Below are positions 1,826 through 24,450 of a DNA stretch of 64,000 nucleotides, one piece after another (position 1 is the stretch's first letter; the number at the start of each line of letters is the position of its first letter). A model generated the notes under the pieces. The model searched no databases. It had not been told where the DNA came from and worked only from the letters and a program-made list of their open reading frames with translations. Source of the DNA: a virus (Duplodnaviria; Caudoviricetes); the IMG/VR virus record IMGVR_UViG_3300014205_000212, positions 10,107-74,106 of that record; one strand, given 5' to 3'. A program made the translations under genes and the position numbers.

Positions 1826-2068
1826 TTACGGCTGTGATATGCGATGTTTGGCGATTACGAGAACAAACCTATCAAAATACATAGAACGTGGACAATACAA
1901 TATTATGGAAACGATAAACTATTTATATGAATAAGAAAGAAAAAAGAATCCAAATTATCGCAATGCTTTACCAAAACATGGATAAAGTAGATGCAGATGA
2001 AACATTAAAACTTATTGATGAATTCAGCACTATGGCAGTAATAAATAATGCCGTATTACCGCATGTTA
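1826..2068 (+). repeat. attC-like site E1 (hybrid or degenerate, TTAC...GTTA)
   Basis: Left arm TTACggctgtgaTATGcgatgtttggcg does not pair with right arm aatgccgtattaccgcatGTTA. That right arm is 21/22 identical to the right arm of E15. Confidence 0.75.
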
Positions 2069-2187
2069 TAAACCGAAGGGAACTGTTAATTGATTTTTCT
2101 ATGAAAAGAAATAAAGCACCTGAAGAATTTAAGGCGCAATATGAGAAAGAAGTTGATGACTACTTAAAATCAATTAATAGTTTATAA
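1927..2187 (+). CDS. Cassette gene, hypothetical; starts inside E1
   Basis: NAVLPHVINR is encoded by the E1 right arm; the stop is the TAA of the next TAAC (2185-2188). Confidence 0.75.
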   Translation: MNKKEKRIQIIAMLYQNMDKVDADETLKLIDEFSTMAVINNAVLPHVINRRELLIDFSMKRNKAPEEFKAQYEKEVDDYLKSINSL

Positions 2188-2308
2188 CGGTTACAAATAT
2201 GAAACGGCAGGGATTACGTGCAAAACCCTATCAGCCGACTACAAATGATGAATAGTAGCACAAAGTATAAAATAAGCATTACGCCCTGCTGTTTTATATT
2301 TGATGTTA
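2185..2308 (+). repeat. attC-like hairpin site E2 (124 nt)
   Basis: TAACggtta-caaatatgaaacggcaggg pairs with ccctgctgttttatatttg-atGTTA, with G.T wobbles only. Confidence 0.92.
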
Positions 2309-2329
2309 TGGTGCGTTTATTTTACTAAC

Positions 2330-2557
2330 ATGGTTGATTTTAACGGATTAGACACAAAAAAAAATGCTGTAAAACTTCAAGTAAAAACAGCAACGATATT
2401 TATTTGGAAAGAAAGTAACTTAACTGCCCTTATTTCTGTTAGAGATAAAGATGGCAAAGCATTATGGCAAAAGGCGCATTGTGATGCTTCTGACTTACCA
2501 TTTGCTATTGAAGTTGCTAACAGAAATATACAGACTGGTATGTTTGAAACGGATTAA
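2330..2557 (+). CDS. Cassette gene, hypothetical
   Basis: Lies between GTTATGGTGC (2305) and its reverse complement GCACCATAAC (2560-2569); likely start ATG 2330. Confidence 0.75.
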   Translation: MVDFNGLDTKKNAVKLQVKTATIFIWKESNLTALISVRDKDGKALWQKAHCDASDLPFAIEVANRNIQTGMFETD

Positions 2558-2565
2558 ATGCACCA

Positions 2566-2653
2566 TAACGGTCGGCAATATGAAACGGTTGCCTTGTAAG
2601 ACGTTTCAAATTTAGTAATAGCCTATCGGCAACTGTTTTTATATTGCTTGTTA
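2566..2653 (+). repeat. attC-like hairpin site E3 (88 nt)
   Basis: TAACggtcg-gcaatatgaaacggttgcc pairs with ggcaactgttttatattgc-ttGTTA. Confidence 0.92.
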
Positions 2654-2674
2654 GGCACAGTTAAATTTAAAACC

Positions 2675-2845
2675 ATGAAAAGAATAACTATTTGGTTAAT
2701 GAAGCGCCAACTAAAAGCAGCAAAAAATTATCGTAATAATTTAGATAATAGTATTGTAATTAAAGCATATGACTACGTTATAAAGAATTACGAAGATACA
2801 ATAATGTTTTTGCGTGCTGAACTTAAATCGAAGGCACGGTCTTAA
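2675..2845 (+). CDS. Cassette gene, hypothetical
   Basis: Between GTTAGGCA (2650) and TGCCTAAC (2849-2856); likely start ATG 2675 (MKRITIW...). Confidence 0.7.
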   Translation: MKRITIWLMKRQLKAAKNYRNNLDNSIVIKAYDYVIKNYEDTIMFLRAELKSKARS

Positions 2846-2852
2846 TTATGCC

Positions 2853-2978
2853 TAACGTTGATAATATGAAAAGTTGGGGGATTAAAAGAGCAAAAATATC
2901 GGGTCGCAACCGAAGCCTTGACGGTAGCTGGGAGGTAACATACACCGCTGCACCCCCAATTTTTTATATTATGTGTTA
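2853..2978 (+). repeat. attC-like hairpin site E4 (126 nt)
   Basis: TAACgttg-ataatatgaaaagttggggg pairs with cccccaattttttatattat-gtGTTA. Confidence 0.92.
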
Positions 2979-3017
2979 GCAACTGGGCTTTATTTATAAA
3001 CTTAAAACTAAATAAAA

Positions 3018-3224
3018 ATGGAAGTAAATGATTTAATAGACCTTAGATTCACTTCATCTACTAAGGGACCCATTCCTATCTCAAGAACTATAGATGGGAA
3101 ATTTGCCCTTATTAATGGAACATTCAGAGGTATAATTGACATAGGCTCTACTTGGAAATGTAGAATAGATAAAATAGAAAAGTTTAAAGTTATAATAAGT
3201 CCAATATCATTACAGAAATTATAA
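3018..3224 (+). CDS. Hypothetical protein
   Basis: 68-aa ORF with an A-rich initiation region; no closing complementary box found. Confidence 0.65.
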   Translation: MEVNDLIDLRFTSSTKGPIPISRTIDGKFALINGTFRGIIDIGSTWKCRIDKIEKFKVIISPISLQKL

Positions 3225-3248
3225 TAATAATTAATAAATTTCAATATT

Positions 3249-3641
3249 ATGGAAACAAAAAACAATGTATTAGTCGTTCTTAAATCTAAGTTAGACTATA
3301 AAGAAAACAAATCAAATACAAGAGAGTTTACAAAAGAAGAGATAACTTTACTAAGAGAGTACTGTATCTCTTTAGATTACCATTTTTCAATTAATAAGCA
3401 AAACAAGATAGTTAAGATATTCAATCCTATTACATTTAAATATGGATACCTTAAAGTTCTTAATAATGAGATATGCTATGGCTATTTCGTTAAAGAGAAC
3501 GATAATTCTAAATTTATTGTAAAATATAATGTTCTCTTAGAGTTAAATAACTTTAAAAAAATAAAAGGTTATAATATAAGAGTAAATAGAATGATCCAAT
3601 CTGTTATGTTTGGTATATATGACTTAGAAATTTTAAAATAA
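3249..3641 (+). CDS. Hypothetical protein
   Basis: 130-aa ORF. Confidence 0.7.
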   Translation: METKNNVLVVLKSKLDYKENKSNTREFTKEEITLLREYCISLDYHFSINKQNKIVKIFNPITFKYGYLKVLNNEICYGYFVKENDNSKFIVKYNVLLELNNFKKIKGYNIRVNRMIQSVMFGIYDLEILK

Positions 3642-3649
3642 ATAGAATA

Positions 3650-4039
3650 ATGAAAAGAGATATTGATTGGAAAGGATTTCAAGAAAATGTAGAAACCTAT
3701 ATTAAAAAAAATAGAGGCATAGGTGCAAAGTTTTTAAAAATATTATTCGATAATTATTCTACAAAGGGTATAAAAAATTTGAATATACAAAAAACTGTAA
3801 AAAGTGATTTAGGTATTATTAGCGATAATACTTCTAACTTAGAAAATATTTTAGGAATGCTACACGAATTTAGGAATTGGAATAGGGAATGGGATATTTA
3901 CTTTGCAAAACACCCTAAAAATGTTGATGAGTTTGCAAAATTATTGTCAAAAAGATACAAAGTTAAACGTGTTAACGTTAATTATAAAAAATCGGTGAGG
4001 AGTTCGGAGCTACGGAACTATCAACTGATACAAAACTAA
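3650..4039 (+). CDS. Hypothetical protein whose 3' end reads through the left arm of E5
   Basis: The TAAC of E5 is out of frame, so the C-terminal NYKKSVRSSELRN is encoded by the hairpin arm. Confidence 0.6.
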   Translation: MKRDIDWKGFQENVETYIKKNRGIGAKFLKILFDNYSTKGIKNLNIQKTVKSDLGIISDNTSNLENILGMLHEFRNWNREWDIYFAKHPKNVDEFAKLLSKRYKVKRVNVNYKKSVRSSELRNYQLIQN

Positions 4040-4097
4040 TTTAGTAGCAAGTGGTTTAAAATAAGCACGATACCCCACTGTTTTTTATAATGTGTTA
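3973..4097 (+). repeat. attC-like hairpin site E5 (125 nt)
   Basis: TAACgtta-attataaaaaatcggtgagga pairs imperfectly with atccccactgttttttataat-gtGTTA. Confidence 0.85.
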
Positions 4098-4146
4098 TCG
4101 GCTGCCTTTTTAAAATTTAATTATTCACTTAAAAACTTAAATAACA

Positions 4147-4479
4147 ATGGAACAAATTAGAAATTCAGACCTTATCGAAGGTAAGACTATTGAAAGAACG
4201 GATTATTTAGATAATAAATTCTTTCTATTTTTTACAGACAATACCTTTTGTATAATATCAGGTTGTGGCTGGGATGAAAAAGATGTTGAATTTAATGAAA
4301 ATGAATTTGAAGTTGAACCTAATACAAGCAACTACGATGATCTTAAAAGTATTGGAATTATTGATGAAGCTACCTTCTTTAAATTTAAAGATCTTAAAGA
4401 ACAAAATAGCAAAGAGTATAGAAAGCAACAAGACATTAAACAACTTAATGAATTACGCAAAAAGTATCCAGATGCGTAA
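4147..4479 (+). CDS. Cassette gene, hypothetical
   Basis: 110-aa ORF after GTTATCGGCTGCC (4094); the closing box is decayed (GGTTGCCG at 4480). Confidence 0.75.
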   Translation: MEQIRNSDLIEGKTIERTDYLDNKFFLFFTDNTFCIISGCGWDEKDVEFNENEFEVEPNTSNYDDLKSIGIIDEATFFKFKDLKEQNSKEYRKQQDIKQLNELRKKYPDA

Positions 4480-4560
4480 GGTTGCCGTATTAAATACGAG
4501 AAATAAAATTTCAATTTACAACAAAACTACACGGGCAAAATGGCGTATGAGCCCGTGTTA
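4480..4560 (+). repeat. Degenerate attC-like site E6 (TAAC and left arm missing)
   Basis: Right arm ggcaaaatggcgtatgagcccgtGTTA is intact; upstream only ggttgccg remains. Confidence 0.65.
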
Positions 4561-4595
4561 GCAGTTGTTTTTATTAATCTAAATATAAATTTATT

Positions 4596-4973
4596 ATGAA
4601 ATACGAAATTAAATATAAAGAACTTGAAAGTTATTTAACTTCTTTACCTGAAAAAGAATTTCAGGACAAAAAATATAATCCAAACGGAATTATTAAAGAG
4701 GCAGAATTGATGACAGATATTGACTTTTTTAAAAAAGATAAATCGAAATTCCCAATAAGTAAAGTTATTGATTACGGAATGCCATTTTTACTTGATGCTT
4801 TAGGCAATGATTTATCTATATGTATTTTAACTAAAAGAAAATTTAAGCTACCAACTGGAAGACCAATACAAGCTAAATTAGACCGTACAATTATATCAAA
4901 TTGTCGAAAAATATATGGAACACCTTTGAATGGATGCTGGGTAATACCTGAGCAGTTCGTGGTTTTAAAATAA
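4596..4973 (+). CDS. Cassette gene, hypothetical
   Basis: Between GTTAGCAGTT (4557) and AACTGCTAAC (4972-4981). Confidence 0.8.
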   Translation: MKYEIKYKELESYLTSLPEKEFQDKKYNPNGIIKEAELMTDIDFFKKDKSKFPISKVIDYGMPFLLDALGNDLSICILTKRKFKLPTGRPIQAKLDRTIISNCRKIYGTPLNGCWVIPEQFVVLK

Positions 4974-4977
4974 CTGC

Positions 4978-5101
4978 TAACCGTTGAAGCTATGACCAGT
5001 AAAGGATTACGGAGCGATGCACTATCCACCGATACTAAGCTGGATGCGAGCTACAACGTTTGATTAACCACCACAACCTTTATTGGTTATAGCTTGTGTT
5101 A
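4978..5101 (+). repeat. attC-like hairpin site E7 (124 nt)
   Basis: TAACcgttg-aagctatgaccagtaaagg pairs with cctttattggttatagctt-gtGTTA. Confidence 0.92.
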
Positions 5102-5147
5102 GTGCCAGTTATTTATTTGATTATCAATTTTTAAAAACAAAAATACA

Positions 5148-5714
5148 ATGAAGAAAATTAGCACACTTTACAAAAAAGACCCGAACGATTTAAGCAGGGT
5201 AATTAATGAAATTGCACCCGAAAATAAATGGGTAATTGATGGCGAAGGTATTCCGACACGCAAGTTTGATGGAACTGCAACCGCTATTATTGATGGCGAA
5301 TTATACAAACGATACGATGTTAAAAAAGGTAAGCAAGTGCCACTAAATGCGATACCATGCCAAGAGGCTGACGAAATTACAGGACACCACCCGCATTGGA
5401 TTAAATGCGACCGAAACAACCCAGCTGATAAATGGCATTTTGTTGGTTTTGATGCCTTAGAAAATAAAGAAGATGGAACTTATGAACTTTGTGGCGAAAA
5501 ATTACAAGGCAACCCAGAACATTTAACTGGACACATTTTAGTTAAACACGGAATAGAAGTATTACCAGTAACCGACTTTTCATTTGAAGGAATAAAAAAC
5601 TACTTATCAAATTCTGAATTAGATATTGAGGGTATTGTTTTTCATCATAAAAACGATGGGCGTATGTGCAAAATTCGCAAATGCGATTTCGGTATCAAGC
5701 GGGCTGTTTTATAA
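5148..5714 (+). CDS. Cassette-borne RNA-ligase-like nucleotidyltransferase (DUF5565-like)
   Basis: Motif I TRKFDGT (KxDG), GTYELCG, motif IV EGIVF, motif V CKIR; bounded by GTTAGTGCCAG (5098) and TTGGCACTAAC (5715-5725). Confidence 0.75.
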   Translation: MKKISTLYKKDPNDLSRVINEIAPENKWVIDGEGIPTRKFDGTATAIIDGELYKRYDVKKGKQVPLNAIPCQEADEITGHHPHWIKCDRNNPADKWHFVGFDALENKEDGTYELCGEKLQGNPEHLTGHILVKHGIEVLPVTDFSFEGIKNYLSNSELDIEGIVFHHKNDGRMCKIRKCDFGIKRAVL

Positions 5715-5721
5715 TTGGCAC

Positions 5722-5845
5722 TAACGGATTATATATGCGTTCGGTTGCTGACGCAAAACAGCACCAACTTAATTTAAAAAACAAAAGTAAAATGAAAGCA
5801 CAAGACAACAAAAAAGAGAAAGCAACTGACGTATATACGTTGTTA
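5722..5845 (+). repeat. attC-like hairpin site E8 (124 nt)
   Basis: TAACggatt-atatatgcgttcggttgct pairs with agcaactgacgtatatac-gttGTTA. Confidence 0.88.
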
Positions 5846-6001
5846 CCTGCCGTTTTAGATGAGATCATTGAATACATTGAAGATACTGAACAAACCATTG
5901 ATGGTGAATGGGGTTCGTGTAGAGACTTGAAAGAGTTGATTAGAGATAAACAAATGCCTGAATTATATGATAAGTTAATTGCTTTGAGAAATGGCAGGTA
6001 A
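5792..6001 (+). CDS. Cassette gene, hypothetical; starts inside the E8 loop
   Basis: ATG 5792 (MKAQDNKKEKATDVYTLLPAV) follows an A-rich tract; the stop is the TAA of TAAC 5999. Confidence 0.7.
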   Translation: MKAQDNKKEKATDVYTLLPAVLDEIIEYIEDTEQTIDGEWGSCRDLKELIRDKQMPELYDKLIALRNGR

Positions 6002-6035
6002 CTCACTTATATATACAGTTCAAAATATTGAAGTA
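5999..6035 (+). other. Array-terminal conserved site T1 (attI-like candidate)
   Basis: TAACtcacttatatatacagttcaaaatattgaagta is similar to the sites at 13048 and 24334; an imperfect inverted copy of the gttcaa...gaagt part lies at 6118-6134. Confidence 0.75.
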
Positions 6036-6286
6036 TGCCAAAACTAATAGAATCGGTAGATATAAAAAATAGAATAATAGAACTGATTAATAATAATAAT
6101 TTATTTATTAATGATGAACTTCAAATTTTTGAAGCACTTATTAATAAATATAAACCTATATCCATTTCTAATTGTTCTAATCTTTTAGGAAAAAAATATA
6201 ACTCTATAAAGTATATGGTTAACCATAATTCTTTACCTTTTATTTCTATTAATAATAGTAAACATATTTTAAAATCTTTAATATAA
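6035..6286 (+). CDS. Small helix-turn-helix protein (excisionase/MerR-like pattern)
   Basis: ISISNCSNLLGKKYNSIKYMVNHNSLPFISIN resembles the 'S.S.AA.LLG.S..T.Y.M...G.LP' HTH pattern; ATG overlaps the end of T1. Confidence 0.45.
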   Translation: MPKLIESVDIKNRIIELINNNNLFINDELQIFEALINKYKPISISNCSNLLGKKYNSIKYMVNHNSLPFISINNSKHILKSLI

Positions 6287-6290
6287 TTAT

Positions 6291-6752: not shown

Positions 6753-6771
6753 TAATATAATTAATTTAATT

Positions 6772-7053
6772 ATGAATTACGAAGAATATTTACAAAAAGG
6801 GAAAGAACTCGAATCAGAATTTGAGAATAAGAAAACAGAATTAATGAAAGAATTTGTAAAGGCAAATAATCCTTATAAAATTGGTGACAAAATAACAGAC
6901 CATATTGGCTCAATAATTATTGAAAAAATGGGGTTTGCGTGGGGTTTCGGTAATAAGCCATGTGCCACATATACAGGTTTAGAACTTAAAAAAGATGGCA
7001 CTCCAACTAAAAAAGAATCACGTAGACAAGTGTGGCAGTCAAATATTGTCTAA
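6772..7053 (+). CDS. Hypothetical protein; stop coincides with the TAAC of E9
   Basis: 93-aa ORF with codon usage like the cassette genes. Confidence 0.75.
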   Translation: MNYEEYLQKGKELESEFENKKTELMKEFVKANNPYKIGDKITDHIGSIIIEKMGFAWGFGNKPCATYTGLELKKDGTPTKKESRRQVWQSNIV

Positions 7054-7062
7054 CATATGTTA
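7051..7062 (+). repeat. Collapsed attC-like site E9 (TAACatatGTTA)
   Basis: The two core boxes are only 4 nt apart; the downstream box GTTACCGCCAG approximates the reverse complement of ATGGACGGTAAC (7697-7708). Confidence 0.6.
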
Positions 7063-7101
7063 CCGCCAGTTTTTATTTATTAATCTTAATATCAAAACTA
7101 T

Positions 7102-7707
7102 ATGAAATCATGGAAAGAACCTACAAAAGAAAGATGGGGAATGGATTATCGTCCCGGAATTACAGAAGAATTTTCACAACTAATTAAATTAGCTAAAGAA
7201 AAGATTGAGCCATTTTCATATAAAGAAATTTCAAGATATACTTATTACTTTAAAGTAAAAGGTGAGGAAATTTCGAGTGAATTTGATTGCTGCGATGATG
7301 AAAAATGTATCAAAGAAGCCAAAAAAGCTATAAGAAAACAATACGGGAAAAATACGCATATTGAAGAATGTTATTCGGATAATGACGAAGACCATGAGAG
7401 TATTGAAATATGTAGTATTTGTGGAAAACCTATGAATGAATATCTTACTTGGTGTAATTCAGAATTAGAGTACTTAGAAGAAAATAAACCTTGGGACGCT
7501 CAATTTTTAGCTGATGAAGGTTTTGTAATTGGCGTTATTTTAGATAGTACTCCAACTATGGATTGTAATATTTCAGATTATGCAAAATATCAAAAAGGCG
7601 AAACACTTCAAAAGGCATTACAATCAAGAGAAGAATTTTTTCAAAGAATCGGTAAATTAGCTCAATCAGTAATTGATGCAGACTTCGCTGTCTTAAATGG
7701 ACGGTAA
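7102..7707 (+). CDS. Cassette gene, hypothetical (CxxC-containing)
   Basis: 201 aa with CSICG; the stop is the TAA of TAAC 7705. Confidence 0.8.
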   Translation: MKSWKEPTKERWGMDYRPGITEEFSQLIKLAKEKIEPFSYKEISRYTYYFKVKGEEISSEFDCCDDEKCIKEAKKAIRKQYGKNTHIEECYSDNDEDHESIEICSICGKPMNEYLTWCNSELEYLEENKPWDAQFLADEGFVIGVILDSTPTMDCNISDYAKYQKGETLQKALQSREEFFQRIGKLAQSVIDADFAVLNGR

Positions 7708-7828
7708 CGGTGAAGCTATGACCAGTAAAGGAATGCGGGCTTCGTGCCTGTCAAAATAGTAGAAACTTAATAGAAAATACAAAATGAAAATTAACGCAGA
7801 AACCCCCAATTGCATAAACATATTGTTA
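7705..7828 (+). repeat. attC-like site E10 (124 nt, hybrid arms)
   Basis: The left arm shares 22 identical nt with the E7 left arm; the right arm cccccaattgcataaacatattGTTA is of another type. Confidence 0.8.
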
Positions 7829-8254
7829 TATGCTGCTTTTTCTTCTATTCCATTAGATATTGAAGGTTCAAATTTAGAAAATACTGGTTGGATTCCTTCC
7901 GAAAATGATAAAAAGTATATGGATGGAAAAAACTATTTACTTGCTATTGAAGAAGCTAATTCCAAAAATGCTAAAGTAATATTTAAAAATGTATCTCTAC
8001 AATGGGATAGTTGTGATTGCGGAGATTATTATGGTTGTTCGCATGGGAATTATGTTTATGATATTGACATAATAAATGAAAATAAAAAAATTAACATAGA
8101 ATATACCGATGGAGATTCTCTGGAATTTTATAACAATGGGAAGTCCTGTAAGATTCCAACAGCAGGAGCAACTATTTTTGATTTTATAAGAATGTGTCAA
8201 ATTTGTGAAATTGAATTAGAGCTAACAGATTACGCAGAAACTCTTTTAAAGTAG
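7784..8254 (+). CDS. Cassette gene, hypothetical; starts inside E10
   Basis: TPNCINILLYAA is encoded by the right arm and box; closing box GTAGCATATAAT (8251-8262). Confidence 0.8.
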   Translation: MKINAETPNCINILLYAAFSSIPLDIEGSNLENTGWIPSENDKKYMDGKNYLLAIEEANSKNAKVIFKNVSLQWDSCDCGDYYGCSHGNYVYDIDIINENKKINIEYTDGDSLEFYNNGKSCKIPTAGATIFDFIRMCQICEIELELTDYAETLLK

Positions 8255-8258
8255 CATA

Positions 8259-8280
8259 TAATTTATTTATATGTGCATAA
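8259..8280 (+). other. Degenerate array-terminal site T2
   Basis: TAATttatttatatgtgcata resembles TAACtcgtttatatgtatag of T3. Confidence 0.4.
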
Positions 8281-8292
8281 AAAGTAATACTT

Positions 8293-8493: not shown

Positions 8494-8503
8494 CTTATAC
8501 TAA

Positions 8504-8893: not shown

Positions 8894-8895
8894 TT

Positions 8896-8991: not shown

Positions 8992-8992
8992 T

Positions 8993-9070: not shown

Positions 9071-9074
9071 AATT

Positions 9075-9954: not shown

Positions 9955-10358
9955 TAGAAGAAGAAGCATTAGAAGAAATAATAAAGTTAGCAAATGGTAC
10001 ATCAGACCCTGCTACAATAAAGGCTTATTATAAACAACAATTCTTTAATGGAAAGAAGATGCTATTTGATGGTACTATCATTACAGCACTACTTATATTA
10101 GAAAAATACAAGGCTTACACAGATTATTGGGATTCTTCATTTGGAAATAAAAATCCTCAATATATAAAATCTGTAGATAAAAAAATGTCTATTTCTGATT
10201 TCTTAGTAAAAGGAGAATATAATAAAACATTTATTCTTCCGGCAAGAAATAGAGATATATATCTATTTGGTACTAATAGTCTTAATGAACTTAAAGTAAA
10301 ATTAATTAATTTTAATAAAAGACTTAATGAAAGAAAGAACACTTCCCGAGGGAACTAA
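9951..10358 (+). CDS. Hypothetical protein upstream of the helicase
   Basis: 135 aa, overlaps both neighbours. Confidence 0.65.
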   Translation: MIEEEALEEIIKLANGTSDPATIKAYYKQQFFNGKKMLFDGTIITALLILEKYKAYTDYWDSSFGNKNPQYIKSVDKKMSISDFLVKGEYNKTFILPARNRDIYLFGTNSLNELKVKLINFNKRLNERKNTSRGN

Positions 10359-11709
10359 AATACCACCTCATGATTTAAGAATAGAAGAAACTATATTAGG
10401 TCAGTTAATGATAGAAGTAAATAAAAATACTATTAATGCTATTAGCATCATTAATGAAGATGATTTTTATAAAGAATCACATAAATTAATTTATAGAACA
10501 ATATCTTTATTATATAAACGAGATAATGTTTGTAATTTCATTATTGTATGTCATGAATTAATGAAGATTCAAGCATTAGAAATAGTAGGTGGTAGTTATA
10601 TTATAAGTACTTTATCTTCTAATGTATCTTCTACTTTAAATGTTATTTATCATGCAAGAATTCTTAAACAGTTATCAATTGCTAGAAAATTAATTGCTAT
10701 TTCATATAATGTTCAAACTTCTGTATATGAAATGAAAGATGTAAAAGAGATAATAGATACTTTAAATAAAGACATTAATAATATCTATAAAGATGTTGAT
10801 AAAGAAGATTCTATTGTCTTAGCTTCTAAAGTATCTGATGAATTAATGAAAGATTTATTAAATGATAATTTTGTATTAAATAAAAAGAATACAGGATTTA
10901 AAATTTTAGATAAAATAATTGGTATTACATTAAATAAAATATTATTAGTTGCTGGTCCTGCAAAACATGGGAAAAGTAAGTTTATAAGTATGATAATGAT
11001 GAATATTTTAGAAAAATATTCTGATGTAAGTATATTTTGGATTACATTAGAAGATTCTGCTAAAGATATCATTGCCGGTTATATTGCTTCTAAAATTTTA
11101 ATTACTCCTAAAGACATCATTGAAAGAACATATTCTAAAGACTGTAATTCTATTATTAAACCTCATATAGAGAAGTTTAAAACCTTTGATATAGAATTCC
11201 AAGAAAAAAGTGCTAAAGTGTCTCAATTTGGCATTAAATTCATTGAATTCTGTAAAATGCGAAAAGGAAGATTTAATATTTTAATAATTGATAATATGCT
11301 TTCATTATCTGATAAAGATGATTTTAAAGGTAATGATAATGGAATGTATGATTATATTATGCTTCAGTTATTAAATATTAAACAAAGGACTAATGCTTTA
11401 ATAATTCCTATTCATCATTATAGAGATGCTCAACAAGCAGAAGGAAAGATAGAAAGTGCATATAGACCAAGATTAATAGACATGAAAGGAACAGAAGCTT
11501 TTAGAAGAGTTCCTAATCAAGTATTACTATTAAATAATCCGGGAAAATATAAAGATTTAGTTATAGAATATAAAGGTCATAAAGACTTACTAAAGAGTAT
11601 CTTTATATGTGATACTGGTGCTAATAGGAATGCTTCCGATGATGATGATAGTGCTTTAATAAGATTCTTTCACACACTAGAATTTAATATTTTTGAAGAA
11701 ATAAATTAA
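10327..11709 (+). CDS. dnaB: Replicative DNA helicase, DnaB family
   Basis: N-terminal PPHDLRIEETILG, Walker A AGPAKHGKS, LIIDN Walker B region. Confidence 0.92.
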   Translation: MKERTLPEGTKIPPHDLRIEETILGQLMIEVNKNTINAISIINEDDFYKESHKLIYRTISLLYKRDNVCNFIIVCHELMKIQALEIVGGSYIISTLSSNVSSTLNVIYHARILKQLSIARKLIAISYNVQTSVYEMKDVKEIIDTLNKDINNIYKDVDKEDSIVLASKVSDELMKDLLNDNFVLNKKNTGFKILDKIIGITLNKILLVAGPAKHGKSKFISMIMMNILEKYSDVSIFWITLEDSAKDIIAGYIASKILITPKDIIERTYSKDCNSIIKPHIEKFKTFDIEFQEKSAKVSQFGIKFIEFCKMRKGRFNILIIDNMLSLSDKDDFKGNDNGMYDYIMLQLLNIKQRTNALIIPIHHYRDAQQAEGKIESAYRPRLIDMKGTEAFRRVPNQVLLLNNPGKYKDLVIEYKGHKDLLKSIFICDTGANRNASDDDDSALIRFFHTLEFNIFEEIN

Positions 11710-11733
11710 CGGTGAGCGTATGAAATCGTGTTA
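11707..11733 (+). repeat. Collapsed attC-like site E11
   Basis: TAACggtgagcgTATGaaatcgtGTTA; its TAA is the DnaB stop codon. Confidence 0.75.
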
Positions 11734-12443: not shown

Positions 12444-12565
12444 TAATGGCTGCGGGTTTGAAATGTAAGGGATTTCAGAACGCTTCCGTATCACACGAGA
12501 TAAATTAACTTAGTAGTAACCAGCTTTACAACAGATAAAACCCTTATATTTTAAACCCGTTGTTA
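12444..12565 (+). repeat. attC-like hairpin site E13 (122 nt, TAAT variant)
   Basis: TAATggctg-cgggtttgaaatgtaaggg pairs with cccttatattttaaacccg-ttGTTA. Confidence 0.88.
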
Positions 12566-12757: not shown

Positions 12758-12882
12758 TAACGGTTCGTGTATGACCCGTTTGGGATTAAATAGTACAAAC
12801 TTTCAAAATGGAACAAATGAATATAAATGACTTAGACTTTCAGCAAACTACCGAACCCCAAATGGGTTATGACACGGTGTTA
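12758..12882 (+). repeat. attC-like hairpin site E14 (125 nt)
   Basis: TAACggtt-cgtgtatgacccgtttggg pairs with cccaaatgggttatGacacg-gtGTTA, leaving one extrahelical G on the right arm. Confidence 0.92.
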
Positions 12883-13050
12883 TCGGCAGGTATTTGTGAT
12901 ACTTGTTCTATTCCTAAAATGATGAATACAGGCGATGGTATAAATGAACCATCTGACCCTATTCTTTATTGTCATAAAATGAAACGTGAAATATGTCCAG
13001 AACCACCAGAGGATAGGATGGTCGAATGTCGGTTTTATACTTGCCGATAA
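12808..13050 (+). CDS. Cys-rich cassette gene; starts inside E14
   Basis: PQMGYDTVLSAG is encoded by the right arm; the stop is the TAA of TAAC 13048. Confidence 0.7.
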   Translation: MEQMNINDLDFQQTTEPQMGYDTVLSAGICDTCSIPKMMNTGDGINEPSDPILYCHKMKREICPEPPEDRMVECRFYTCR

Positions 13051-13153
13051 CTCGTTTATATGTATAGTTCAAAAAAATGAAGTAGTCTATATATTAAATA
13101 GTTATATGTTTTATTGTATTCATTTTATATAATTATACTTCAATTTATTGAAA
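13048..13153 (+). other. Array-terminal conserved site T3 with downstream imperfect inverted repeat
   Basis: TAACtcgtttatatgtatagttcaaaaaaatgaagta; inverted copy tacttcaatttattgaaa at 13136-13153. Confidence 0.75.
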
Positions 13154-17912: not shown

Positions 17913-17925
17913 GTTATTTAACTTT

Positions 17926-17960
17926 TAGAGGAATATCTTTAATAAGGTATTCCTCTATTT
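17926..17960 (+). terminator. Stem-loop after the recombination cluster (terminator or processing site)
   Basis: tagaggaatatctt-taat-aaggtattcctcta followed by ttt. Confidence 0.55.
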
Positions 17961-17974
17961 AATAAATTAAAATT

Positions 17975-19312: not shown

Positions 19313-19395
19313 TTCTAAATTTTAAATAGTAATTAATTGTATAGAATAAATATCTTATTTTAAAAGAATTGTTTGTTTAATTAAATAATTGTCAT

Positions 19396-20016: not shown

Positions 20017-20177
20017 TATGAAAGTTACTGTGACTTATATCAAAGTAATCAAGAAAGTTATAAAAGCGAAAGACAACGCAGAACTTTTAATACTTATTGA
20101 TGAAAAGTGCCCTAAAGGTTATATTTTACAAAAATTTTAATTTTATAATTTAGTAATAATTTTTAAAACGAAATAAA

Positions 20178-20618
20178 ATGAAAAATACTATTGATAAATT
20201 AAAATTGAAAAAATATCATTCTAAAATAATAAAAGCTAAAATAATAACTAGTAAAAATGCATACGATTATATTAGACAGTTTTACTTTGATGATATAGAT
20301 ATTTATGAAAGTGTTTTTATATTACTCATAGATGCCTCTAATACAACAATAGGATATGCTAAAATAAGTCAAGGAGGAGTTATAGGAACAGTTATAGATG
20401 TTAAGTTAATATGTAAATATGTTATAGATAGTTTAGCGATGGGAGTTATATTAGCTCATAACCATCCTACAGGTAACCTTAAAGCAAGTGATTCTGATAT
20501 GCAAATAACATCTAAAGTAAAAGATGCTTTAAATATCTTTGATTGTAAATTATTAGATCATATTATACTTAGTTCTAATAAATATTTATCCATGGCAGAT
20601 GAAGGAATTTTAATTTAA
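20178..20618 (+). CDS. radC: RadC-like JAB/MPN domain protein
   Basis: E...SQGG...VILAHNHPTGNLKASDSD...LLDHIIL. Confidence 0.92.
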   Translation: MKNTIDKLKLKKYHSKIIKAKIITSKNAYDYIRQFYFDDIDIYESVFILLIDASNTTIGYAKISQGGVIGTVIDVKLICKYVIDSLAMGVILAHNHPTGNLKASDSDMQITSKVKDALNIFDCKLLDHIILSSNKYLSMADEGILI

Positions 20619-20624
20619 AATATT

Positions 20625-21287
20625 ATGAAAAATAAATATGTTTATTATATAATGGAAACTGATATATGGCAATCAAATTATTCAGAAACTCTATTTGGTA
20701 TTTATGATGATTATGATATAACTTTTAAAGAGTTTAATAAATTATCAGAATTTTATAATAAAGAAAATATTAATGGAGATATTATTATGTATTATACTAT
20801 TATAAATCAAAAACATGAATCTATAAAAATTATGTCTAAATCTGGTAATTAATGAATAAAGAAGAAAAAGAATTATTTATAAATAATTTTATAAATAGTA
20901 TAAAAGAAGATTTATTATCTAAATTAGATTCTATTCCTGAAAATTGGGATGGATTTGAATTAAGACATTATATTAATATTAAATTCGAACAAGAAAATTT
21001 ATGGAAAAGAAAAATATTAAGTAATACAGATAAAATAAGAAAACAAAGATGTCTTAATGATATTTATAATAATGGGTTGTAGTGTATTAAATTGGAGTAG
21101 GGAGTTACATAATAAAAAAGTAACTCCTGACCGTAATGATGGTAAAATAACAGTTAAAATACCAAATGGATATATCACATTTTCCACTGAAGAAGAAAAA
21201 CAAGATTGGCTTAAAAGATATTTAAATAAACAAATTGTTGAAAATAAACCTTTAAAATTTAATCGTTATAAAAAAAGAAATAAATGA
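20625..21287 (+). other. Three short hypothetical CDSs (20625-20852, 20852-21082, 21057-21287)
   Basis: Coupled ORFs on the + strand. Confidence 0.6.
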
Positions 21288-21709
21288 AAGCAGAAGAATA
21301 TAAAGACATTTTAAATCATTATATGTATCGTTTTAAATTAGAACATACAGATGAATATCATAATTATATAAAATTAAAATATTTCTATACAAAAAATTCA
21401 GAAATTACAGTAGATAATATTATAAAACTTGTATGTGAAGGAGAGAAAGTAGATATAGAAGATATGAAAAGAACCGGAAGAAATAGAAATTTAAATATTC
21501 AACCTAGACAAATAGCTTCTTATCTTATTACTAAACACATTAAAGGACTTACATTAGAATCAATAGGTAAAGCTTTAAGAAATGAACCTTTAGATCATGC
21601 AACAGTTATTCATGCTAATAAAACTATTAATAATCTTATAGATACAGATAAGAGAATGAAAAATAAATTAATTCATTATGAAGACATCATTAAAGCTTGG
21701 AAAGAATGA
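21284..21709 (+). CDS. Stand-alone DnaA C-terminal (domain IV) HTH protein
   Basis: PRQIASYL...TLESIG...DHATVIHA matches the DnaA domain IV signature. Confidence 0.85.
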   Translation: MKAEEYKDILNHYMYRFKLEHTDEYHNYIKLKYFYTKNSEITVDNIIKLVCEGEKVDIEDMKRTGRNRNLNIQPRQIASYLITKHIKGLTLESIGKALRNEPLDHATVIHANKTINNLIDTDKRMKNKLIHYEDIIKAWKE

Positions 21710-22362
21710 CAGAGATAGAAAAGTTCTTTAAAGATACATATGTTAGAAATACACCTATAATAGAATATCTAAGAGAAGCTACAAGAAATAAATTAGCATA
21801 TTTTATTCCTCTTAATACACCATCATTAAAAAATAGTAAACAGATACAACAGATATTTACTAAGAATTCTACTTGCTGTCATTCTAGAGGTGGATTGGTT
21901 ATTAAAACATCTACAGGAGGATTAATTTGTTCTCATTGTCAACAACCTTGTGGAAGACATACAAGACCTATTTTAAATGCTTCAGATGGCGTACAGGAAT
22001 ATGAAAAAAATATATTACCTTTTGTAAATGTCTTTAAAGGTATATTTAAAGAATGGAAAGTAGGAAAGACAGAACCTTTAGTTATGTGTTTTTATTTTAT
22101 AAGAAACCAATATAGAGATTTTGATTATGGAAACGCTTCTGAGGTACTTTTAGATATGTTTAAAGACCAAACTGATAAGAAGACTAAAGAAGTTATACCG
22201 AGATTAATTACTGATGATTGTATGCGTTTTGTAAAACCTTTCTTTCTAGGTTGTCATTATTCACAAGATAAACCTGGTACTATCATTACTTTACTTACAA
22301 AAGAACTACTTGAAATATATAGTAAAGTATATTTAGATTATAAACCTAATACATTATTCTAA
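21697..22362 (+). CDS. RusA-like Holliday junction resolvase with a Cys-rich insertion
   Basis: TPSLKNSKQ N-motif; FIRNQYRDFDYGN and LITDD acidic motifs; insertion CCH...CSHCQQPC. Confidence 0.55.
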   Translation: MERMTEIEKFFKDTYVRNTPIIEYLREATRNKLAYFIPLNTPSLKNSKQIQQIFTKNSTCCHSRGGLVIKTSTGGLICSHCQQPCGRHTRPILNASDGVQEYEKNILPFVNVFKGIFKEWKVGKTEPLVMCFYFIRNQYRDFDYGNASEVLLDMFKDQTDKKTKEVIPRLITDDCMRFVKPFFLGCHYSQDKPGTIITLLTKELLEIYSKVYLDYKPNTLF

Positions 22363-23119
22363 TGAAAACATATAAACCAATAACTAAAAAAATAATAATA
22401 GATATATTAACCGATGTAGAACATTATAATCAAAGTCCATTAAATTTAATAATTAATGGATATAATATTGATGAAAATATCACTTGTAGAAAAATATGTG
22501 TTAAAAAAGGTAGAATAGAATATTTCTATTATAAAGATTCTCCTGAAAGTATGGAAAGATTTAAAATGTTACTTAACCAAATATTAAATAGAAATGAAAA
22601 AAGTAAGTATAGTAATAGTATCAAGAATGTATAATGTAATACATGAAGATGATTTATCTGAAACAGGAATATTAAGATTAGCAGAAAACAACTTTGATAA
22701 TGAAATTAACCTATTAACTTCTAATTTAGAAGATGGTGATTTTGCTTATGAAATAAAAAGTACTAACGATTATAAAGTTTGATATGGAACAGTCATTTAT
22801 AGAAAAAAGAATTGCAAGTAAAGCAACTGAAAGAGTAGATAAAGATTATAGAGAATTTATAGATTTTTGTAATAAAAATCCTTTTGCTAAACAAATACAA
22901 ATTAAAGTAAATAATATAAATATTTTTTTAACTGGTAATAATTATAATAATCAAGAATTATTTTCTCCTCATAATACAAATAATAAAAATAATGATTTTA
23001 CCAACTATATAGATATATTCAATAAGCTTCAAAAAAAATATGAAAAAGAAGAAACAGAAATTTTACTTGATAAATTAGATAGTGTAAAATATTTATTTGA
23101 TAACTTAAATAACATATAA
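22362..23119 (+). other. Three short hypothetical CDSs (22362-22634, 22594-22782, 22784-23119)
   Basis: Coupled ORFs on the + strand. Confidence 0.6.
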
Positions 23120-23124
23120 TTAAT

Positions 23125-23490
23125 ATGCAAAAACATACAGAAATATATTTAAATCATTTTCATCTTCATCAAGGAGAAGTTATAGTAAGTGAGATATCCG
23201 GAACTACCAATGGTATAAACATTCATCATTTAGATTCTAAAAAGATGGGTGGTAGTGATACTAAAGATTATATAGAGAATCTATGTGCTATTACCATTAC
23301 AGAACATGAGTTATGCCATAGATATAAAGAATATAATGAATATGTAAAGAAGATACATGAATTATTCTTAACTATTAATCCTTATTCTTATCCTCATCTC
23401 TTTCTTGATAATACAATTTATAAAAAATATCAAAAAGATTTATATCAGATACTTAAAGAATGTGGACATTATAAAAAATATAGTAAATGA
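23125..23490 (+). CDS. HNH-family nuclease-like protein
   Basis: IHHLDSKKMGGS...ENLCAITITEHELCH. Confidence 0.7.
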   Translation: MQKHTEIYLNHFHLHQGEVIVSEISGTTNGINIHHLDSKKMGGSDTKDYIENLCAITITEHELCHRYKEYNEYVKKIHELFLTINPYSYPHLFLDNTIYKKYQKDLYQILKECGHYKKYSK

Positions 23491-23505
23491 ATATAGATAA
23501 TAATG

Positions 23506-23633
23506 TAACGGCTGGCGGTATGCGGTCGTTGCCGAACTATCAAATTAGTAATAACTTAAATACGAGAACAAAATTATGAATACAGAAAAAAGTATCAACG
23601 AAGCGGAAGGCAATGCCGTATTACCGCTTGTTA
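23506..23633 (+). repeat. attC-like hairpin site E15 (128 nt)
   Basis: TAACggctg-gcggtatgcggtcgttgcc pairs with ggcaatgccgtattaccgc-ttGTTA, with single-base bulges. Confidence 0.9.
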
Positions 23634-23944
23634 CCACCCGTTTTTTATTGCTCAGTCTGAAATGGACTAACAAAAAAGATAAGTGGTTTACGTTTTGGCG
23701 TGAAAATTCAGCAGGGTATTGCTGGTTCAAAGAATGGTGTGGACTTTATGATATTGAAAAAGCAAGAGAAACGCACGGACACGACAATACTATTATGGTT
23801 GATGGATTCCTTATTAAACACCTTTGGAAAGAAATTGAATACGAAGGTAAAAAACGTGAAATACTTCCAAATACGGAAGAGGTGCGTAAATTTTTATCTA
23901 TTCAACTTCGAGATTTAAAAGCATTGCACCGCACTACTCATTAA
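23576..23944 (+). CDS. Cassette gene, hypothetical; starts inside E15
   Basis: GNAVLPLVTTR is encoded by the right arm and box; closing box ATGGGTGGTAAC (23945-23956). Confidence 0.8.
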   Translation: MNTEKSINEAEGNAVLPLVTTRFLLLSLKWTNKKDKWFTFWRENSAGYCWFKEWCGLYDIEKARETHGHDNTIMVDGFLIKHLWKEIEYEGKKREILPNTEEVRKFLSIQLRDLKALHRTTH

Positions 23945-23952
23945 ATGGGTGG

Positions 23953-24042
23953 TAACGTTTTGCGTATATACGAGGTACGCCTTAACGATGAATTTTAAAT
24001 TACAACAAACGCTTATAGGCGTATCTTGTATATACGCTGTTA
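23953..24042 (+). repeat. attC-like hairpin site E16 (90 nt)
   Basis: TAACgtttt-gcgtatatacgaggtacgcc pairs with ggcgtatcttgtatatacgc-tGTTA. Confidence 0.92.
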
Positions 24043-24057
24043 GCACCAGTACGGATT

Positions 24058-24324
24058 ATGAGAACTGAACTAAATTTATATGATGACAAATTAAAACAAG
24101 CAATACTTGATTTGCCATACAATACAAAGATTGATGATAATGGTGTTGATTGCGATATGGTTTTCATCCCTGAAAGTGATTATGGATTTGCTGAAATATA
24201 CAGAATGTACGATGATATTTTAGTTTTTTTAATCCCAACTTACGGAGGAACACCATCATTGCAATATCACGTTAGTAGACACGCTATTGATTATCTGATT
24301 TCTGAATTGAAAAAGATAACGTAG
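24058..24324 (+). CDS. Cassette gene, hypothetical
   Basis: Between GTTAGCACCAGTAC (24039) and GTATTGGTGCTAAC (24324-24337). Confidence 0.8.
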   Translation: MRTELNLYDDKLKQAILDLPYNTKIDDNGVDCDMVFIPESDYGFAEIYRMYDDILVFLIPTYGGTPSLQYHVSRHAIDYLISELKKIT

Positions 24325-24333
24325 TATTGGTGC

Positions 24334-24450
24334 TAACTAGTTTATATATATAGTTCAAAAAAATGAAGTAATAGATTTATTAAGGCTTTCAACTTAGTTT
24401 TTATAATTATTTTTATACCTATTATATTTTATTACTTCATTTTTTTGAAC
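24334..24450 (+). other. Array-terminal conserved site T4 with a perfect 20-bp inverted repeat
   Basis: TAACtagtttatatatatagttcaaaaaaatgaagtaat; gttcaaaaaaatgaagtaat (24353-24372) is inverted at 24431-24450. Confidence 0.78.

Follow-up and report, generated by a model that had tools for sequence, protein, structure and literature searches.

Paired, gene-specific ends with a conserved G·T wobble delimit integron-like gene units in a crAss-like phage

Main finding

The DNA studied here (the window, a stretch of 64 kb) comes from a crAss-like phage that carries small accessory genes in swappable units. The box that opens a unit and the box that closes the same unit are complementary to each other, and a G in the opening box faces a T in the closing box at position 11. 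In our view, these units are probably integron-like cassettes, whose paired boxes represent the R arm of a site folded from single-stranded DNA and used by a Xer-like recombinase, with the wobble marking the arm and/or the strand. Clusters of attC sites in phages are already known (published in 2023); an integron-like gene-capture system of Bacteroidota phages has barely been described so far.

Organization of the four arrays

The arrays, A to D, have a GC content of 32%, compared with 23.6% for the backbone, and all of their elements are read on the + strand. Array A starts with a hairpin (1826..2068) that begins with TTAC rather than TAAC, has a big loop with an ATG at 1927 and ends with GTTA; its arms are partly complementary, and this boundary is tentative. 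Unit a (2065..2188; GTTATAAACCG ... AGTTTATAAC) is paired at nine of the first ten positions, has G/T at position 11 and is unpaired at positions 12-15. An attC-like hairpin of 124 nt running from TAAC to GTTA (2185..2308) separates it from unit b (2305..2569; GTTATGGTGCG ... TGCACCATAAC), which is paired at positions 1-10 and 12-15, and a short attC-like hairpin of 88 nt (2566..2653) leads to unit c (2650..2856; GTTAGGCACAG ... TTATGCCTAAC) with its one mismatch. Beyond the next attC-like hairpin (126 nt; 2853..2978) lie two units that possess an opening box and lack a matching closing box: unit d (2975..3976; GTTAGCAACTG), with three AT-rich ORFs (25% GC), and, after an attC-like hairpin of 125 nt (3973..4097), unit e (4094..4556; GTTATCGGCTG), at whose end a truncated hairpin remnant is found (~4480-4556). 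Unit f (4557..4981; GTTAGCAGTTG ... TAACTGCTAAC) and an attC-like hairpin of 124 nt (4978..5101) precede unit g (5098..5725; GTTAGTGCCAG ... TTGGCACTAAC), which harbors a gene for a 188-amino-acid RLIG1-like protein (5148-5714). The following attC-like hairpin (5722..5845) contains a start codon (5792) inside its loop, and unit h (5842..6002; GTTACCTGCCG ... TGGCAGGTAAC) is the last of array A. The array-end (attI-like) site (5999..6040) consists of TAAC, TCACTT, ATATATAC and AGTTCAAAATATTGAAGTA, and was compared with the ends of arrays linked to a recombinase gene.

Unit B1 (7059..7708; GTTACCGCCAG ... TGGACGGTAAC) is paired at eight of ten positions and again at positions 12-14, with G/T at position 11; it lies 4 nt from a preceding TAAC (7051-7054), and a hairpin is absent from this joint. 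Of the arms of the hairpin between B1 and B2 (7705..7828), the left one is intact (TAACGGTGAAGCTATGACC...) and the right one degenerate, and unit B2 (7825..8262; GTTATATGCTG ... TAGCATATAAT) closes with TAAT. Array C is opened, at the end of dnaB, by a minimal hairpin remnant in which 19 nt separate TAAC from GTTA (11706..11733), followed by unit C1 (11730..12136; GTTAGTTGCAG ... TTGCAACTAAC), an attC-like hairpin starting with TAAT (12444..12565), unit C3 (12562..12761; GTTAGGCACAG ... TTGTGCCTAAC), an attC-like hairpin of 125 nt whose loop contains the start of the ORF at 12808-13050 (12758..12882), and the last unit, C4 (12879..13051; GTTATCGGCAG ... TTGCCGATAAC). Its array-end (attI-like) site (13048..13084) reads TAAC, TCGTTT, ATATGTAT and AGTTCAAAAAAATGAAGTA. 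Array D begins with an attC-like hairpin of 128 nt (23506..23633), the loop of which contains the start of the ORF at 23576-23944; it continues with unit D1 (23630..23956; GTTACCACCCG ... TGGGTGGTAAC), a short attC-like hairpin of 90 nt that is the most stable in the set (23953..24042), and the last unit, D2 (24039..24337; GTTAGCACCAG ... TTGGTGCTAAC). The array-end (attI-like) site of array D (24334..24370) has an inverted partner copy at 24433-24454.

Pairing of the unit ends and the wobble at position 11

A preliminary description of this DNA had listed 12 pairs of boxes and had proposed that the two ends of one gene match each other, rather than the two ends of one hairpin. All 12 pairs were recovered at the listed coordinates, and a 13th pair within one unit (7059/7708; 8 of 10 matches) was added. 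Positions 1-10 are perfectly paired in nine of the 12; the pairs 2065/2188 and 2650/2856 contain a single mismatch each, and pair 7825/8262 ends with TAAT instead of TAAC. The complementarity is longer than had been recognized: it encompasses positions 1-10 and 12-14 or 15, with positions 12-14 paired in 12 of the 13 units, position 15 in six, and position 16 in none. At positions 5-10, the first of which is T, G or C, boxes of the same unit match at 74 of 78 positions, whereas cross pairs reach a mean of 2.0 of 6, and the boxes on either side of one hairpin match at just one to four of six. When the closing boxes were permuted 100,000 times, the highest score was 99, as against 116 for the true pairing; the shuffled pairing which might have overturned the proposal thus scores lower. 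The claim that G at position 11 faces T in every matched pair holds in all 13 units; the number of opening boxes with this G has been amended from 15 of 16 to 15 of 15 that are identifiable in the window.

The wobble is conserved well beyond the window, as had been predicted for a larger set of sites, in this case from about 35 contigs of related viruses. With position 11 unconstrained, a scan found G/T in 93 of 110 matches, and in 89 of 95 when the boxes contained at least two G or C. In a second set, in which units were delimited by hairpins or array ends alone, 63 well-paired units with 50 distinct hexamers were obtained; 53 of them carry the G·T pair at position 11, and nine of the ten exceptions have the same wobble offset by one bulged T. 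The rule also holds true for the GTTGG/CCAAC cores of the cultured Polaribacter phages Leef_1 and P12002L, a divergent system whose recombinase is just 33% identical. The stems of Leef_1 are 18-23 bp long; hence, the wobble is located there inside a longer stem and not near its end.

Cassette mobility and the recombinase platform of related phages

Unit g recurs in other phage contexts (loci L003 and L006) with a nucleotide identity of 91-92%, and the homology ends at GTTA and TAAC. The hairpin goes with the downstream gene: in three clear cases (L009/L039, L059/L076, L071/L073), homologous hairpins are followed by identical boxes but preceded by different ones, and a fourth pair has upstream boxes that are only similar. 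Unit g itself is flanked on both sides by unrelated hairpins in the window, L003, L006 and L032, and hairpins thus appear to be exchangeable as well, something that a single TAA|C crossover does not explain. The arrays vary between conserved platforms, and the homology between loci begins at the last TAAC.

In most of the 34 loci with a homologue of the recombinase, the array ends directly upstream of the recombinase gene; about 30 related phage contigs have this gene straight after an array-end site of the form TAAC-N4-ATATGTAT, and in L025 a Xer-like recombinase of 276 amino acids begins 53 nt past the last TAAC. The nearest relatives of this recombinase with solved structures are XerA, XerC-like and XerD proteins. 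Its alignment with VchIntIA covers residues 38-176/36-179 and 198-272/244-318, and the gap between these segments means that about 43 amino acids of the IntI insert are missing. It scores 160 bits on TIGR02249 (cut-off 265), 185 on NF040815 (cut-off 220), 163 on TIGR02224 (cut-off 335) and 160 on TIGR02225 (cut-off 330). Identity with the XerA, XerC or XerD equivalogs was rejected, as all scores fall below the curated NCBIfam cut-offs. Searches with PF00589, TIGR02249, PF01797 and PF00239 revealed no recombinase in the record of the window or in four other array-bearing viral records, which are rated 100% complete. A variable array beside a conserved integrase and attI platform is present in the relatives; the window has the array-end motif only. 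Since the recombinase is absent from the 74-kb fragment, its four arrays are orphans, which may be acted upon in trans.

Site geometry and a proposed mechanism

A profile of 71 hairpins anchored on GTTA contains T at -15 in 67, A at -7 in 68 and T at -1 in 67 of them, and a G·T pair is formed at -15 in 52 of 57 cases. T(-15), W(-8) and A(-7) form a mirror image of T(11'), T(4') and A(3'). The wobble at position 11 is therefore not unique, as the hairpin has a mirror-image T·G at the equal arm position, and the site can be read as a pair of inverted arms, each about 11 bp long, that enclose a center with 6 nt on the 3' strand, within the 6-8 bp typical of Xer-type sites. Bulges of 4 and 1 nt lie on the 5' arm of the hairpin, and its G·T pairs have their G on the 5' arm 119 times versus 11 times in the opposite orientation. 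The central region deduced for the array-end sites has a non-uniform length (5-7 nt), which counts against this reading, as do the two units that lack a closing box and the long stems of Leef_1.

We propose an R arm of 11 bp (5'-N T N6 T A A-3' | C), one strand of which is supplied by the opening box (GTTA-N6-G...) and the other by the closing box (...T-N6-TAAC). On the 3' strand, the center would comprise 6 bp and the L arm, also of 11 bp, would have the sequence 5'-T N6 W A N-3'; the center would have 4+1 additional unpaired bases on the 5' strand. Both arms would have a T·G wobble at their position 10, and the G·T described above for position 11 would be the R-arm copy. A cassette would then consist of C, the hairpin, the GTTA box, the gene and the box ending in TAA, and strands would be exchanged within TAAC on the coding (+) strand. 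With exchange at this point, the hairpin would travel on the 5' side of its own gene, and in an array the hairpin of cassette n+1 would lie beside the closing box of cassette n. For the two boxes of a cassette to pair into an uninterrupted stem, the cassette would have to be circularized at TAA|C or the + strand would have to fold back over the gene; once joined, the boxes would lengthen the hairpin by a stem of 14-15 bp. Folding in silico agrees with the circular form anticipated in the preliminary description, as the circularized junctions have a mean energy of -23.4 kcal/mol on the + strand, versus -17.2 kcal/mol for the form found in the array and -19.4 kcal/mol for the - strand. The exchange would probably be catalyzed by a small Xer-like tyrosine recombinase. 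We infer that the wobble tags the arm for this enzyme and/or limits its activity to the + strand, because the - strand turns every wobble into a C·A mismatch.

Alternative explanations

The pattern of the G·T at position 11 makes a role as a recognition determinant plausible: the pair is invariant over 50 hexamers, it is kept in the GTTGG-core system, and the hairpin arm contains its dyad-symmetric counterpart. The occurrence of the wobble in both arms would fit either a recognition mark or a mark for strand choice. It has to be considered, with the same recombination system in operation, that the protein does not read the wobbles at all and that the inequality of the strands alone fixes the recombining strand, and hence the orientation of the cassette: G·T pairs are present in the folded + strand, and C·A mismatches at three fixed places in the - strand. 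All three conserved wobbles (+11, -1 and -15) are indeed G·T on the + strand, and the + strand fold is the more stable one in 45 of 58 hairpins and in eight of nine circularized junctions. However, the energy gap is small (~1.4 kcal/mol per hairpin), the 5' bulges by themselves already make the strands unequal, and a bias alone does not require the exact dyad-symmetric arm position 10. We regard this explanation as rather unlikely.

It is very unlikely that the structures work as RNA in mRNA processing, stability or translation, where G·U would be tolerated, with the cassette-like distribution being secondary. The polarity of the wobble does agree with the coding strand, and start codons are located within hairpin loops and stop codons directly outside the stem. 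Yet Rfam contains no family that matches the window, the private hexamer of each gene is left unexplained, the homology between loci breaks precisely at TAAC and GTTA, the units move among unrelated phages, and the arrays border on the gene of a tyrosine recombinase and have a conserved site at this end. We give hardly any credence to the boxes being terminal inverted repeats of transposon-like or IS200/IS605-type elements moved by a transposase, despite the inverted ends of 14-15 bp of each unit and the hairpins on its flanks. The repeats vary by unit (50 hexamers), so that no single transposase could bind all of them; target-site duplications are absent, and ordered, stacked arrays end at one conserved site by a tyrosine recombinase. 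A Y1 transposase and a serine recombinase are missing from the five records, and the absence of the Y1 (HUH) transposase (PF01797) from the record of the window and the four complete array-bearing records led us to reject an IS200/IS605-type element. Tails such as G-TACGG / TAGTAT-T are common to families of cassette ends and suggest common descent for some of them. From this it might be argued that complementarity and wobble are frozen relics of cassette origin, for instance of a palindromic progenitor split at the first recombination, without present selection. This is highly improbable, as the pairing is kept over 50 different hexamers, compensatory double changes are found between homologous hairpins, the boxes of one gene differ between loci and yet are matched within each locus, and the wobble persists with a different core and the 33%-identical recombinase. 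The integron-like reading, with a folded single-stranded site and a Xer-like enzyme, hence remains the one that we prefer.

Comparison with known systems

Classical integrons consist of IntI, attI and attC cassettes; the crossover occurs at G|TT in a 7-bp core (GTTRRRY), and the bottom strand is folded (review PMC8876359). The phage arrays resemble them in that single-gene cassettes are arrayed by a tyrosine recombinase next to a conserved array-end site, imperfect hairpins are bounded by ..AAC/GTT.. cores and favor one strand, the core beyond the crossover is that of the neighbor cassette while the cassette's own two ends match, and the arrays vary between conserved platforms. The integron logic of the preliminary description is sustained, with the boxes belonging to the gene unit and not to the hairpin, mobile units, and a recombinase at the array end in relatives; its framing in terms of the classical 7-bp R box has to be abandoned. 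The phage recombinase lacks the ~43-amino-acid insert that defines IntI. The complementarity of a cassette's own ends across the crossover, an integron feature, extends to 14-15 bp rather than 7 bp, and in Leef_1 to as many as 23 bp; both arms have fixed T·G wobbles, and the conserved core is GTTA/TAAC alone. With 102 occurrences in the window against 118 expected, GTTRRRY shows no enrichment. It is the 5' (R'-L') arm that has unpaired bases, in contrast to attC with its extrahelical bases on R''-L'', and the hairpin is situated 5' of the gene, often holding its start codon, whereas attC is 3' of the gene. Moreover, the coding strand folds in the phage and the non-coding (bottom) strand in integrons, and the elements are phage-borne, with several arrays per genome. 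A classical IntI/attC system was rejected on the lack of the IntI insert and of RYYYAAC / GTTRRRY cores, the 5' hairpin and the coding-strand fold.

Xer/dif and the CTX-type phage attachment sites, single-stranded phage sites that exploit Xer, share with the phage system relatives of Xer, two 11-bp arms around a 6-bp center, a folded single-strand substrate and, probably, the exchange of one strand. Unlike dif, the phage sites are not chromosome-dimer resolution sites, their outer arm is private to each cassette, and their recombinase falls under the curated cut-offs of the XerA, XerC and XerD equivalogs.

CALINs are defined by the absence of IntI and by two or more attC sites that lie within a few kb of each other and are recognized by IntegronFinder or HattCI. 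Qi et al. (2023) described phage CALINs, including that of Polaribacter phage P12002L, a site of which was called by HattCI (PMC9892861). These belong to the same site family, the hairpin at the DNA methyltransferase unit of P12002L being their 'P12002L_attC1', and the array of this virulent phage is, like those of the window, an orphan. The sites were handled as ordinary attC and assayed with IntI1, and P12002L_attC1 was the sole one of six for which recombination with attI1 was not obtained or verified (PMC9892861). A dedicated recombinase, the extended end pairing and the wobble rule are unreported in that study.

The PeSL cassettes of T4-type phages, promoter/stem-loop elements for which shuffling via mini-circles has been proposed (PMC2839356, PMC4122927), likewise place small accessory phage genes between stem-loops in hyperplastic regions. 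PeSLs are conserved promoter-terminator motifs thought to act through homologous recombination; in the arrays studied here, by contrast, the stem sequence of the hairpin varies by junction, the complementary boxes are gene-specific, the breakpoints fall exactly at 4-nt cores, and a tyrosine recombinase is linked.

The phage and its cassette-bearing region

The IMG/VR virus record from which the window derives is 74.1 kb long (CheckV completeness 39%); the window spans its bases 10107-74106 and has a GC content of 26%. The phage is crAss-like. The crAss muzzle protein (PF25731) is encoded on the minus strand at positions 56478-60866, and a replication module with DnaB at 10327-11709 is found on the plus strand. 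The minus strand also contains an ORF of 5514 aa (35857-52401) that is open under the standard code and has ORFs of 1387, 756 and 1462 aa as neighbors; such a group of large ORFs is typical of the giant-gene block of crAss-like phages. The small cassette-type genes occupy the plus strand between 1.8 and 24.4 kb of the window, in arrays whose GC content of 32% exceeds that of the surrounding backbone (23.6%), a difference that fits an acquisition from other phages. A search for relatives based on DnaB yielded none in viral contigs, and only GenBank phages with an identity of at most 25%.

Pairing of the boxes within each unit

The preliminary description had claimed that the box opening a gene (GTTA...) is matched by the box closing the same gene (...TAAC), and all twelve pairs that it listed are present at the positions it gave. 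Nine of these are perfect at positions 1-10, the pairs 2065/2188 and 2650/2856 contain one mismatch each, and the closing box of 7825/8262 reads TAAT; the pair 7059/7708 was added to the set. A generic inverted-repeat finder returned mostly AT-rich noise, and constrained folding was therefore used instead. The stem is longer than previously reported, with positions 12-14 matched in 12 of the 13 units, position 15 in six and position 16 in none, and a G in the opening box faces a T in the closing box at position 11 in all 13 units. Boxes of the same unit agree at 74 of 78 sites within positions 5-10; cross pairs agree on average at 2.0 of six, and the two boxes beside one hairpin at just 1-4 of six. 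Permuting the closing boxes 100,000 times never gave a score as good as that observed, and the claim of same-gene pairing therefore stands.

Other readings of position 11 were considered and rejected. It is not the outer end of the stem, as the pairing runs to 14-15 bp in the window and to 18-23 bp in the cultured Polaribacter phage Leef_1. The facing T (position 11') does not serve as a base of the stop codon, since the stops lie at variable positions (14-17), and a second GTTA core at positions 11-14 is not general, T12 alone being enriched (about 60%).

Several units depart from the common form. At 7051-7062, just 4 nt separate a closing box from the opening box that follows it (TGTCTAAC-T-GTTACCGCC), and this cassette junction is devoid of a hairpin. 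The units 2975-3976 and 4094-4556 possess a normal opening box and no matching closing box; the former contains three AT-rich, backbone-like ORFs (25% GC) and resembles a disrupted cassette or one that became fused to native genes. Many unrelated cassettes (those at 12562 and 24039 in the window and others in the loci L026, L078, L086 and L089 of its relatives) have a common tail past the hexamer, with opening boxes of the type ...G-TACGG(ATTAT), closing boxes of the type (C)GTAG-TAT-T..., and a TAG stop at stem positions 14-16.

Conservation of position 11 in a larger set of sites

A larger set of sites was assembled by means of the RLIG1-like gene (188 aa; 5148-5714) of the unit at 5098-5725, for which more than 3000 homologs exist; this gene led to one Logan contig (L003) and 49 viral loci (L006-L054). 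The gene is boxed in about eight of these loci and is an unboxed, ordinary phage gene in the rest (about 40), making it a possible case for studying the origin of cassettes. The boxed copies carry the hexamers GTGCCA, GCAGAT, TACGCT, TGCGCT and GGGCAA, each with its own matching closing box. Contigs of about 970 bp with this gene were considered as assembled circles; the one readable contig proved to be an ordinary unboxed context.

An open scan of all loci demanded pairing at positions 5-10 and 12-14 and left position 11 unconstrained; it found G/T at this position in 93 of 110 cases, and in 89 of 95 when the boxes contained at least two G/C. The other hits are chance pairs of AT-rich sequence, or units that lie on the opposite strand. 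To guard against circularity, units were also defined by their flanks only, from one hairpin to the next hairpin or to the array end. This gave 87 units, 63 of them well paired and with 50 distinct hexamers; G·T occupies position 11 in 53 of the 63, and nine of the ten exceptions have the identical wobble shifted by a single additional T within the opening box (GTTA-N5-T-C/A-G...). A further variant combines a T·T mismatch at position 10 with the G·T pair. Hence, the conservation of G11, claimed from the window alone, is upheld in the larger set.

A tiny "empty" unit (GTTATTCGAAAGG-TTTGCG-CCTTTCGAATAAC) is present in L078 (4856-4949) and recurs in L076 upstream of position 705, between the last cassette and the recombinase. 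Its 13-bp stem is perfect, and position 11 is occupied by A·T in place of G·T.

Hairpins and the layout of the cassette

Across the loci, 101 TAAC...GTTA hairpins lie between units, with a sharp length peak at 124-127 nt. In their common fold, the outermost TAAC-G is paired with T-GTTA, followed by four unpaired bases on the 5' side and, further inward, by a stem of 4 bp, a single bulged base, again on the 5' side, and a stem of about 15 bp. A comparison with Rfam at the gathering threshold gave no match.

Five lines of evidence (array ends, box linkage, loop starts, G·T polarity and compensatory changes) place the predicted crossover inside TAAC on the plus strand and argue that the hairpin belongs to the downstream gene. 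Arrays begin with backbone, TAAC and a hairpin, and terminate with a closing box and TAAC, directly after which comes a conserved site that is not a hairpin. In three clear cases (L009/L039, L059/L076, L071/L073), homologous hairpins have identical downstream and different upstream boxes; in a fourth pair, also from L059/L076, the upstream boxes are merely similar, and linkage of a hairpin with its upstream box was found in none of the homologous hairpins compared. The start of several genes lies within the hairpin loop, the hairpin G·T pairs have their G on the 5' arm in 119 cases as opposed to 11 in the reverse orientation, and the outer stems of homologous hairpins exhibit compensatory double changes. 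The cassette thus probably consists of C, the hairpin, the GTTA box, the gene and the closing box up to TAA. The plus strand in this system corresponds to the "bottom" strand of the classical integron, and the genes point in the direction opposite to that in classical cassettes.

The preliminary description also suggested that each unit had once existed as a circle. When nine window units were circularized and folded in silico, the box stem added about 6 kcal/mol, with mean folding energies of -23.4 kcal/mol for the plus strand, -19.4 kcal/mol for the minus strand and -17.2 kcal/mol for the form present in the array. Among hairpins, the plus strand gives the better fold in 45 of 58. As a complication, the hairpins on either side of the unit with the RLIG1-like gene are unrelated in the window, L003, L006 and L032, and hairpins are therefore also exchangeable, by whatever route.

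The wobble in the folded site

A site profile was derived from 71 hairpins anchored on GTTA, read along the 3' strand; T(-1) occurs in 67, A(-7) in 68, A or T(-8) in 70 and T(-15) in 67 of them. A G·T pair is formed by T(-1) in 49 of 57 and by T(-15) in 52 of 57. The arrangement 5'-T(-15) N6 W A N-3' mirrors that of the closing box, 5'-T(11') N6 T A A-3'|C. We read the folded site as a putative standard tyrosine-recombinase core with two inverted 11-bp arms, whose central region would comprise 6 bp on the 3' strand, with 4+1 additional bases in the 5' strand. Arm position 10 is a T·G wobble in both arms, with the T on the strand running 3'-inward in each, and the G·T pair at position 11 of the boxes is predicted to be the member of this pair in the R arm, the stem made by the cassette's own two boxes.

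The symmetry of the two arms is the main argument for a wobble that would be recognized by each recombinase monomer, or would at least be needed in the folded substrate. All three wobbles turn into C·A mismatches in the minus strand; they may therefore also, or instead, set the choice of strand.

Array ends and an array-linked recombinase

Neither the record of the window nor four array-bearing viral records rated complete contain a tyrosine recombinase, a Y1 transposase or a serine recombinase. In a fifth record (L025), a tyrosine recombinase of 276 aa begins 53 nt past the last TAAC and is followed by terL. Homologs of this enzyme (57-100% identity) were retrieved in 34 loci, in most of which the array terminates just upstream of the recombinase with [closing box]TAAC-N4-ATATGTAT. 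Homology among these loci extends from the last TAAC through the recombinase; their arrays differ, and individual cassettes recur elsewhere in them. The recombinase platform is also present on contigs binned with Flavobacterium, Pedobacter and Saprospiraceae. The enzyme is, as judged from its sequence, Xer-like: XerA proteins are the closest relatives with a solved structure, it scores below every curated equivalog cut-off, and in comparison with VchIntIA it lacks about 43 residues at the IntI-specific domain.

The array ends of the window at 6002, 13051 and 24337 have in common TAAC-N6-ATAT(G/A)TA(T/C) and a 22-nt motif, which is found elsewhere in the window only as an inverted partner at 24433-24454. 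At the last of these ends (24338-24465), the motif makes up the left arm of a separate inverted repeat of 36 nt, together with this minus-strand partner; for the site at 13051, a weaker counterpart lies about 85 nt downstream. An exact search for the motif in viral contigs returned two chance matches inside tail-fibre-like coding sequence.

Cassettes in cultured phages

The integrase Leef1_38 of Polaribacter phage Leef_1 (MT732473) is 33% identical to the L025 enzyme. In the region 24390-28135, a cassette array with GTTGG.../...CCAAC cores lies upstream of the annotated integrase gene; its box stems measure 18-23 bp, and position 11 is G·T, next to which two units show a T·T mismatch at position 10. 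The paper describing Leef_1 mentions the integrase solely as a sign of possible lysogeny. The DUF551 gene of this phage and the sequence after it resemble the start of the L003 array.

Polaribacter phage P12002L contains units that obey the same pairing and position-11 rule. Its hairpin beside a methyltransferase gene is the P12002L_attC1 site of Qi et al. 2023 (PMC9892861), the only one of six phage sites without obtained or verified IntI1 recombination into attI1 (PMC9892861). In one boxed unit of this phage (14622-15197), the gene (gp24) and the G/T polarity lie on opposite strands; the orientation of the gene in the cassette is hence not fixed. The occurrence of the system in cultured Polaribacter phages makes it directly testable.

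Relation to integrons

Integrons are the textbook gene-capture device of bacteria, and how their folded sites are recognized despite little sequence conservation is a long-running question. It is known from the early integron literature that the start of a cassette matches its own inverse core within the 7-bp core. For integrons, the point of crossover and the choice of the bottom strand have been described (PMC8876359), and a study of 2023 reported orphan attC clusters from phages (PMC9892861). In the literature searched, we found no description of an end pairing of 14-15 bp, of the invariant wobble with its counterpart in the L arm (the inner hairpin arm), of a polarity that follows the coding strand and places the hairpin 5' of the gene, or of a dedicated Xer-like recombinase without the IntI domain.

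It is quite possible, and we would stop short of calling it probable, that phages of Bacteroidota possess a gene-capture system of their own that is independent of IntI, in which a minimal Xer-like recombinase acts on a folded coding-strand site whose arms are marked by T·G and for which the wobble is the address. The wobble would lie ten base pairs from the cleavage point in each arm, and the remaining outer arm would be variable and private to the cassette. With the wobble as a structural "address", one enzyme could handle hundreds of different arm sequences, and cassettes could pass between unrelated phages, ranging from siphoviruses of 33 kb to crAss-like ones. Unrelated phages, one of them crAss-like, draw on a common pool of ready-made accessory-gene cassettes, with cargo such as the RNA-ligase-like gene in the window and DNA methyltransferases in its relatives; such a pool bears on the acquisition of counter-defence genes by phages, and is relevant to the study of integrons and of phage genome plasticity. 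In comparison with IntI, the candidate recombinase is smaller and lacks the domain by which IntI reads extrahelical bases. The phage system appears related to, yet distinct from, integrons, and its site follows a simple structural rule, a fixed T·G wobble in either of its two arms.
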